DNA of 64,000 nucleotides from Escherichia coli (GTDB lineage: Bacteria; Pseudomonadota; Gammaproteobacteria; Enterobacterales; Enterobacteriaceae), in NCBI RefSeq assembly GCF_024298765.1, contig NZ_CP101212.1; one strand, 5' to 3'. The notes under the pieces were generated by a model. It had not been told where the DNA came from. It saw only the letters and a list, made by a program, of their open reading frames with translations, and ran no database searches. Below, piece by piece: positions 25,397-25,483 of the stretch (the stretch's first letter is position 1; each line of letters begins with the position of its first letter). A program made the translations under genes and the position numbers.

Positions 25397-25416
25397 AATC
25401 TACGTTTCTAGAATAA

Positions 25417-25463
25417 TCGAAATATAATTCTGGTCAAGATATTTCTGGTATTATCGAAATATC
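25417..25463. promoter_or_regulatory. Direct repeats ATCGAAATAT (x2) in the arsR-arsP divergent intergenic region; candidate operator
   Basis: ATCGAAATATA at 25417-25427 and ATCGAAATATC at 25453-25463; region flanked by the inverted 8-mers aaccctct (25383-25390) and agagggtt (25471-25478). Confidence 0.3.
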
Positions 25464-25483
25464 ATTAGACAGAGGGTTGTCAC

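Follow-up and report, generated by a model that had tools for sequence, protein, structure and literature searches.

Two candidate operator palindromes between a SpArsR-like arsR gene and a divergent arsP-like permease gene of Escherichia coli

The arsR-arsP intergenic region

We analyzed a stretch of 64,000 nucleotides of Escherichia coli DNA (contig NZ_CP101212.1), here called the window, in which an arsR-type regulator gene and a divergent arsP-like permease gene are separated by a 105-bp gap carrying a pair of repeats. The features of this region are collected in Table 1. The regulator, which resembles SpArsR of Shewanella putrefaciens 200 and AfArsR of Acidithiobacillus ferrooxidans, matched the Pfam models HTH_20 (8e-15) and HTH_5 (1.5e-7), both over the cut-off, as expected of a winged helix-turn-helix protein of the ArsR family. 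It also matched the NCBIfam model NF033788 with 63 bits, against a cut-off of 55; at the equivalog level, NCBIfam yielded no name for either the regulator or the permease. The two fragments of the permease gene jointly covered positions 3 to 97 and 103 to 293 of the PF03773 (ArsP_1) profile, placing the protein in that family. The locus had been described in a first-pass annotation as a divergent arsR-arsP region, and a divergent PF03773 permease does lie beside arsR, but its gene is disrupted. The permease gene is intact in pVM01 (WP_001089729) and is cut in the window by a 2.7-kb element of the IS66 family, on whose two sides the 8-bp target sequence GATTAAGC is duplicated (22365-22372 and 25072-25079). 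The window therefore holds arsP as a pseudogene, with no intact permease open reading frame.

The window contains the decamer ATCGAAATAT in just two places, both on the plus strand (25416-25425 and 25453-25462), against a mean of 0.11 copies expected from shuffled sequence. Both copies reported in the first-pass annotation are thus present, although their start-to-start spacing is 37 bp rather than about 36 bp. The direct repeat is also longer than had been indicated, extending over 25 nt (25405-25429 and 25442-25466) with 84% identity. Inside both 25-nt copies lies a dyad, TTTC-N10-GAAA, and the right copy shows a perfect 8-10-8 palindrome, GATATTTC-N10-GAAATATC. Judged on sequence, the functional unit is a putative 26-bp imperfect palindrome with the consensus TATATTTC-N10-GAAATATA, of which ATCGAAATAT is the right half. 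We refer to the two units as O1 (distal to arsR) and O2 (proximal); their centers are 37 bp apart. When the 64 kb were scanned with the pattern ATATTTC-N10-GAAATAT, allowing up to two mismatches, only O1 and O2 matched, and a position weight matrix (PWM) of the dyad likewise returned these two as its sole hits, O1 ranking second. We ruled out plain direct repeats (iterons or transposon ends, for instance), as each unit is palindromic and lone units precede the regulator where it stands by itself. That the repeats exceed chance is shown by their conservation across species, presented below, and not by the window alone.

The inverted flanks AACCCTCT and AGAGGGTT, which had been proposed as part of the operator, do form a perfect 8-nt inverted pair, but they are the two Shine-Dalgarno sequences of arsP and arsR and not operator elements. 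The left arm falls outside the interval originally delimited for the repeats (25397-25483), and in the chromosomal E. coli homologue it reads AACCTCAT, so that the inverted partner is not kept. As both arms are Shine-Dalgarno sequences and the left one is not conserved as an inverted partner, we ruled out the flanks as parts of an operator.

Table 1. Features of the arsR-arsP region, with positions in the window
Feature	Position	Strand	Details
arsP-like permease, 3' fragment	21538..22372	-	Pfam ArsP_1 1e-28, profile positions 103-293; 100% identical to pVM01 (L001)
IS66-family element in arsP	22373..25071	-	Ends GTAAGCGG...CCGGTTAC; three IS66-typical open reading frames; junctions from comparison with intact pVM01 gene
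arsP-like permease, 5' fragment	25072..25378	-	ATG at 25378; Pfam ArsP_1 3e-19
arsP Shine-Dalgarno	25383..25390	-	AGAGGGTT on minus strand; 6 nt ahead of ATG 25378
P1, promoter-like site for arsR	25390..25417	+	TTGACA (25390-25395), 16 nt, AATAAT (25412-25417) inside O1; 11/12 consensus matches
O1, candidate operator, arsR-distal	25401..25426		TACGTTTCTAGAATAATCGAAATATA; imperfect dyad, core TTTC-N10-GAAA; PWM 30.0 bits
arsP promoter-like site	25410..25437	-	TTGACC (25437-25432) abutting O2, 16 nt, TATTCT (25415-25410) inside O1
O2, candidate operator, arsR-proximal	25438..25463		GATATTTCTGGTATTATCGAAATATC; perfect 8-10-8 palindrome; PWM 34.5 bits
P2, candidate ancestral arsR promoter	25446..25454	+	Putative extended -10-like TGgTATTAT inside O2, read from the sequence
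arsR Shine-Dalgarno	25471..25478	+	AGAGGGTT; GAGGG 7 nt ahead of ATG 25484
arsR-type regulator gene	25484..25807	+	107 aa, SpArsR/AfArsR-like; Cys73, Cys91, Cys92; Pfam, NCBIfam, SpArsR alignment

Conservation of the dyad across genera

A collection of genomes was scanned with an alignment of 20 members of the regulator clade (alignment A2), which yielded 80 further loci with 61 to 96% protein identity. These came from Escherichia, Citrobacter, Aeromonas, Vibrio, Photobacterium, Shewanella, Serratia, Endozoicomonas, Marinobacterium, and Paraglaciecola and from metagenome-assembled genomes (MAGs) of Desulfobulbus and Beggiatoa. About 70 of the 84 loci, ranging from Enterobacterales through Vibrio and Shewanella to the Desulfobulbus MAG, carry the dyad ahead of the orthologous regulator gene, while the flanking DNA was not conserved. 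Comparison with other arsR-arsP intergenic regions had been posed beforehand as a check that could refute the operator proposal, and the repeats passed it, being the only intergenic part that is conserved across genera. Likewise, in an alignment of 18 diverged intergenic regions (100 to 120 nt), the conserved parts consisted only of the two dyads and an adjacent TCAAGATA. Between the plasmid and chromosomal versions of E. coli, which are 85% identical overall, O2 was invariant and O1 nearly so, and the position of O1 was kept in Enterobacterales, Aeromonas, and the Desulfobulbus MAG.

The 77 distinct instances of the dyad gave the consensus tATATTTC-tAgtATtATC-GAAATATa, in which all 8/8 arm positions are symmetric; TTTC and GAAA were present in 77/77, an invariance that follows from the construction of the seed. 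Symmetric arms that are invariant in sequence and show no covariation are the pattern of a putative protein-binding site. They bear on a reading in which the 21-nt imperfect inverted repeat at 25405-25425 and 25439-25459, whose arms are 76% complementary, would fold into a hairpin in the arsR leader and control translation or termination at the RNA level. We find this scarcely credible: the primary sequence is conserved without compensatory changes, loci with a single site cannot form the inverted pair, and the first arm would be mostly untranscribed from either predicted arsR start. The region had no Rfam match at E values of up to 1 and, together with the lack of covariation and the existence of single-site loci, this ruled out a leader RNA element.

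The dyad was also strongly concentrated ahead of the regulator genes. Across the 84 loci, 150 PWM sites fell within the 24.9 kb ahead of arsR (6.0/kb), versus 7 in the other 412 kb (0.017/kb), and all 7 of these lay directly upstream of permease genes that had been relocated (L029, L033, L063, and L066). In an unsupervised 8-mer test on the distant loci L021 to L084, the top word was ATCGAAAT, present in 33 of 62 upstream regions versus 6 of 1433 background windows; this word is the core of the repeat described in the first-pass annotation. The number of sites followed the gene arrangement, with at least two sites in 53 of the 55 loci that have a divergent permease, while 18 of the 28 loci without one had a single site and 10 had none over the threshold. 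The suggestion that the repeats are candidate ArsR operator sites was thus supported by the conservation footprint, by the 8-mer enrichment, by a motif that tracks the permease gene, and by the dyads in the promoter fragment of SpArsR described below.

We also considered whether the dyads might be bound by a different, unlinked transcription factor, with the adjacent ArsR binding elsewhere or nowhere. AT-rich palindromes can indeed serve nucleoid or global regulators. However, the motif and the ArsR clade co-occur in Gammaproteobacteria and in the Desulfobulbus MAG in three arrangements (divergent, tandem, and regulator alone), the PWM had no hit at the neighboring canonical arsRBC promoters (L003 to L005), and the motif is contained in a fragment reported to give SpArsR-dependent control in an E. 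coli host. An unlinked factor is thus very improbable.

Promoter overlap, proposed switch, and effector

Two promoter-like sites were detected in the intergenic region, against 0.7 expected from shuffles, and the arrangement of Table 1 recurs in other loci. Transcription is predicted to begin near 25461 and/or near 25424 for arsR, and near 25403 on the minus strand for arsP. Of the 53 two-site loci, 28 have a -35-like hexamer on the permease strand directly next to the proximal site (at least 4/6 matches to TTGACA, for the most part TTGAYN), and in 29 a TAnnnT located 16 to 18 bp beyond this hexamer overlaps the distal site; the layout holds at site spacings of 37 to 39 and of 49 to 50 bp. On the arsR side, TGnTAnnnT was found within the proximal site of 29 of the 53 loci. 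The proximal site begins 41 to 49 nt ahead of the arsR ATG in 57 of 73 site-bearing loci, and this fixed distance fits a promoter embedded in the proximal site. At the level of the DNA, the window thus shows the arrangement sought for an ArsR/SmtB repressor, a palindromic operator overlapping its own or an adjacent promoter, in the form of two 26-bp dyads over promoter-like hexamers.

The same hexamers could mean that the repeats are nothing but conserved promoter elements, that is, -10-like AT-rich hexamers and UP-like DNA with no repressor site, since the centers of the dyads hold -10-like hexamers on both strands and the -35-like TTGAYN is conserved. Yet it is the symmetric outer arms TTTC/GAAA and ATA/TAT that are invariant, and these do not belong to the promoter consensus; the sites are also palindromic whatever the direction of transcription. 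In addition, Vibrio loci carry a third copy of the dyad far from any start codon. We regard promoter elements alone as an extremely improbable explanation.

Taken together, these data lead us to propose, with a probability of about 0.85, that O1 and O2 are tandem operators of a homodimeric ArsR/SmtB repressor, which would control its own gene and the divergent arsP and would be released by an organoarsenical. One repressor dimer would occupy each 26-bp palindrome, with one recognition helix per TTTC/GAAA arm, and the intergenic region would hold two divergent promoters placed back to back, the -10 element of either one lying within an operator. On O2, a dimer would block arsR at the extended -10 element TGgTATTAT and crowd the arsP -35 element TTGACC, and a dimer on O1 would block the arsP -10 element TATTCT together with the start region and, in the plasmid lineage, also P1, a near-consensus extra promoter of arsR. 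Since the operators cover the core elements of both promoters, a bound repressor would exclude RNA polymerase, resulting in autorepression of arsR and repression of arsP. By analogy with SpArsR, release would occur when a trivalent organoarsenical, e.g., methylarsenite [MAs(III)], binds Cys91 and Cys92 at the C-terminal end of the dimerization helix. In the window, the switch would act only on arsR itself and on the truncated arsP, leaving ArsR as its only intact regulated product. Repressor binding, promoter positions, stoichiometry, and effector are all elements that we infer, and among the steps of the mechanism the identity of the effector, taken from a homologous system, is the least secure.

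Several points weigh against this proposal. The PWM was seeded from the window pattern and trained on the same upstream regions, a circularity that is mitigated by the regions of the relocated permeases, which lay outside the training set, and by the unsupervised 8-mer test. Many of the loci are related (Vibrio, Aeromonas), so that the counts overstate the number of independent events and nominal P values are inflated; the 8-mer signal is unambiguous despite the relatedness among Vibrio. The spacing between sites is variable (37, 49 to 52, 62 to 66, and about 87 bp), which does not allow a fixed cooperative geometry to be claimed and argues for independent rather than phase-locked binding. The promoter positions are consensus matches only, and the -35 element of P1 is not conserved outside Enterobacterales. 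Two further points concern the effector. Cys73, which is invariant in the clade, is left unexplained by the proposed sensing scheme, and the only NCBIfam models matched by the permease were the SO_0444 Cu/Zn efflux family, with 116 bits against a cut-off of 300, and SaoE, with 88 bits against 325. As both matches fall under their cut-offs, they do not fix the substrate of the permease.

These last points also serve a reading that keeps the operators but assigns the switch an effector other than MAs(III). It could instead be inorganic As(III) or Sb(III) with Cys73 as third ligand, an oxidant or persulfide that leads to a disulfide between Cys73 and Cys91/92, as in ArsR proteins resembling BigR or RexT, or a metal exported by the permease. 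Cys73, Cys91, and Cys92 are invariant in 20 of 20 members of alignment A2. Cys91 and Cys92 align with Cys101 and Cys102 of SpArsR and with Cys95 and Cys96 of AfArsR; Cys73 (codon at 25700-25702) corresponds to Cys83 of SpArsR, a position without cysteine in AfArsR. Among solved structures, AfArsR (6J05; E = 1e-14) is the closest relative of the regulator, followed by BigR and YgaV. The nearest NCBIfam models of the permease, for Cu/Zn efflux and SaoE, include none for arsenic, and none of six ars genes sought within 2.5 kb was found at most Vibrio and Photobacterium loci.

In contrast, SpArsR, which has the same three cysteines, is described in three papers as responding to MAs(III) and not to As(III) (PMC11868830, PMC13236881, PMC12124457). 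As(III) binding by AfArsR involves Cys95, Cys96, and Cys102, the third of which is absent from SpArsR, according to two of these papers (PMC13236881, PMC11868830). The tail of the window protein after the CC pair, VNSKTDVAEHAGKNG, contains no cysteine and thus offers no equivalent of AfArsR Cys102; a third C-terminal cysteine is present in some distant members of the clade, e.g., P0060, P0077, and P0085. Furthermore, the Enterobacterales, Aeromonas, and Serratia loci are embedded in ars genes that include arsH, an organoarsenical oxidase gene. A different effector for the same operators is, in our view, unlikely, and release by an organoarsenical such as MAs(III) remains the reading that we favor.

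Gene context, distribution, and related systems

The segment spanning the 5' part of arsP, the intergenic region, and arsR was found with at least 99% identity in 267 sequenced plasmids and with 90 to 95% identity in 355 others, mainly of E. coli and Salmonella. A version with about 85% identity lies on E. coli chromosomes; overall, 2383 of 5426 complete E. coli genomes gave a match, and about 44% carry the chromosomal copy, which directly adjoins arsRBC (L003, 3306-6978; L004, 2306-5891). Since the arsR-permease pair stands beside arsRBC in these genomes, two different ArsR regulators lie side by side. In L002 (3736-6780), a plasmid relative with 94% identity, the genes after arsR are arsH, one for a SigZ-like sigma factor, arsD, and arsA. 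The window lineage lacks this arsH-sigma-arsD-arsA stretch and has IS1 after arsR; IS1 starts at 25855, 47 bp past the arsR stop codon, and extends to about 26620. Linkage to ars genes was thus observed with arsRBC on E. coli chromosomes, with arsH, arsD, and arsA on plasmids and in Aeromonas, and with arsA in the Desulfobulbus MAG.

Some further observations were made on the neighborhood of the clade. In Serratia, Ewingella, and Hafnia (L043, L055, L067, and L075), a single operator precedes arsR, which is followed by arsH on the same strand, with no divergent permease; these loci look like arsR-arsH operons with the same operator. In Vibrio loci, a gene for an extracytoplasmic function (ECF) sigma factor of the SigZ type overlaps the end of the arsR orthologue (L034, 2781-3398, NF007215 with 241 bits; L038, 2781-3341), and the same kind of sigma factor gene lies between arsH and arsD in plasmid L002 (4555-5100). 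This suggests a recurring link between the CC-type ArsR clade and an ECF sigma factor. The enterobacterial permease contains a loop of about 90 residues that is rich in cysteine and serine, with five CC pairs (SSCCSTSS, TSCCTSS, SACCSS, and VSCCSS, among others). The loop corresponds to about 21950-22220 of the window, on the minus strand (residues ~150 to 240 of the intact permease), and may bind metalloids; homologues from Vibrio and Shewanella have a shorter loop or none. Downstream of arsR, a second set of IS66-family open reading frames was found on the minus strand at 27112-29447, encoding a 512-residue transposase, a 115-residue TnpB-like protein, and a 134-residue TnpA-like protein, and differing in sequence from the insertion in arsP.

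The analysis provides a concrete cis element and a probable function for a pair of genes whose annotation goes no further than "ArsR/SmtB family transcription factor" and "permease." The pair is common in complete E. coli genomes and occurs in more than 600 sequenced plasmids. The motif can serve as a search pattern for members of the regulon, and it defines operator DNA for binding studies and for the design of methylarsenite biosensors. In an agar-plate assay, the signal of the existing sensor, which is based on Shewanella, was reportedly too low; a regulator/promoter pair native to E. coli might outperform it in an E. coli host. The arrangement is that of a textbook repressor and operator, unusually well conserved, and leaves current understanding unchallenged. 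There is, by our estimate, an even chance that the dyad is a general operator, so far undescribed, of the whole ArsR clade with a C-terminal CC pair (SpArsR/AfArsR-like), with -10 elements built in. If so, it would mark an organoarsenical-sensing regulon, as yet uncharacterized, whose members are arsP, arsH, and the gene for a SigZ-like ECF sigma factor. About 44% of E. coli chromosomes and hundreds of IncF-type plasmids would carry this regulon, which in the window would have decayed to an orphan, self-repressing regulator. The accessible literature, primary SpArsR, AfArsR, and ArsP papers excepted, contained no description of the operator motif or of the E. coli module, nor anything relevant on RegPrecise ArsR regulogs or on arsP of IncF plasmids, and a preprint on the ArsR of hgcAB contained no operator data.

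Among known systems, SmtB, CzrA, and NolR are all detectable sequence relatives of the window regulator. Their operators are AT-rich imperfect palindromes over promoters; each dyad takes one dimer, a divergent region such as smtA-smtB often contains two of them, and the distance of 14 bp between arm centers in the window resembles that of NolR. Their half-sites are of the TGAA/TTCA type in a 12-2-12 arrangement, whereas those of the window are TTTC/GAAA, and the sensing site and effector differ as well. The ArsR proteins of R773 and of the E. coli chromosome share with the window regulator the superfamily and the logic of a repressor released by a trivalent arsenical. However, their sensing site, ELCVCDL, lies in the DNA-binding domain, and the window regulator has no cysteine in the corresponding helix and thus no type 1 CVC site. 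The operator of the R773 type differs in sequence and consists of one site, which lies upstream of the -35 element, and the arsRBC promoters surveyed (L003 to L005) carry no dyad of the window type. AfArsR, with its type 2 As(III) site, is the best structural match and has a CC pair aligned at the end of the C-terminal helix; it differs in having its own Cys102 as third ligand and in lacking Cys73.

A similar dyad, ATATTTC-N9-GAAATGT, was noticed in the arsRM promoter of Noviherbaspirillum denitrificans (PMC12124457, supplement Text S3, Nd-ars-gBlock). This promoter is controlled by a further ArsR that responds to MAs(III) and likewise carries a C-terminal CC pair. As the machine-read PDF drops letters, the length of the spacer is uncertain, and we treat this dyad as a lead only.

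SpArsR was reportedly characterized by Chen, Nadar, and Rosen in 2017 as a methylarsenite-selective ArsR that represses arsP. Both the coding sequence of SpArsR and the arsP promoter, which is described as the 222 bp upstream of arsP, are given in the supplement of a 2025 biosensor paper (PMC12124457), and this promoter fragment of S. putrefaciens together with SpArsR is reported to confer MAs(III)-responsive expression in E. coli (PMC12124457). The SpArsR sequence was taken from a machine-read PDF, in which two lost letters were repaired before alignment. The two regulators are 58% identical over 92 residues, Cys73, Cys91, and Cys92 of the window protein corresponding to Cys83, Cys101, and Cys102 of SpArsR, and neither has a third C-terminal cysteine. 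In S. putrefaciens, too, arsR is adjacent and divergent to arsP, since one end of the promoter fragment is the native start codon of arsR and arsP reads off the other. The intergenic fragment, which measures 219 bp, carries two dyads, GATATTTCTGGTATTATCGAATTACT and TTAATTTCTGGAATTATGGAAATATT, and the arsR-proximal GATATTTCTGGTATTATCGAATTACT is identical to O2 of the window at 23 of 26 positions. The systems differ in geometry, the Shewanella sites being 108 bp apart in a 219-bp spacer and those of the window 37 bp apart in 105 bp, in the long Cys/Ser-rich loop of the enterobacterial permease, and in the disruption of arsP in the window. By the features compared, all of them read from sequence, the window module appears to belong with the SpArsR-arsP system.

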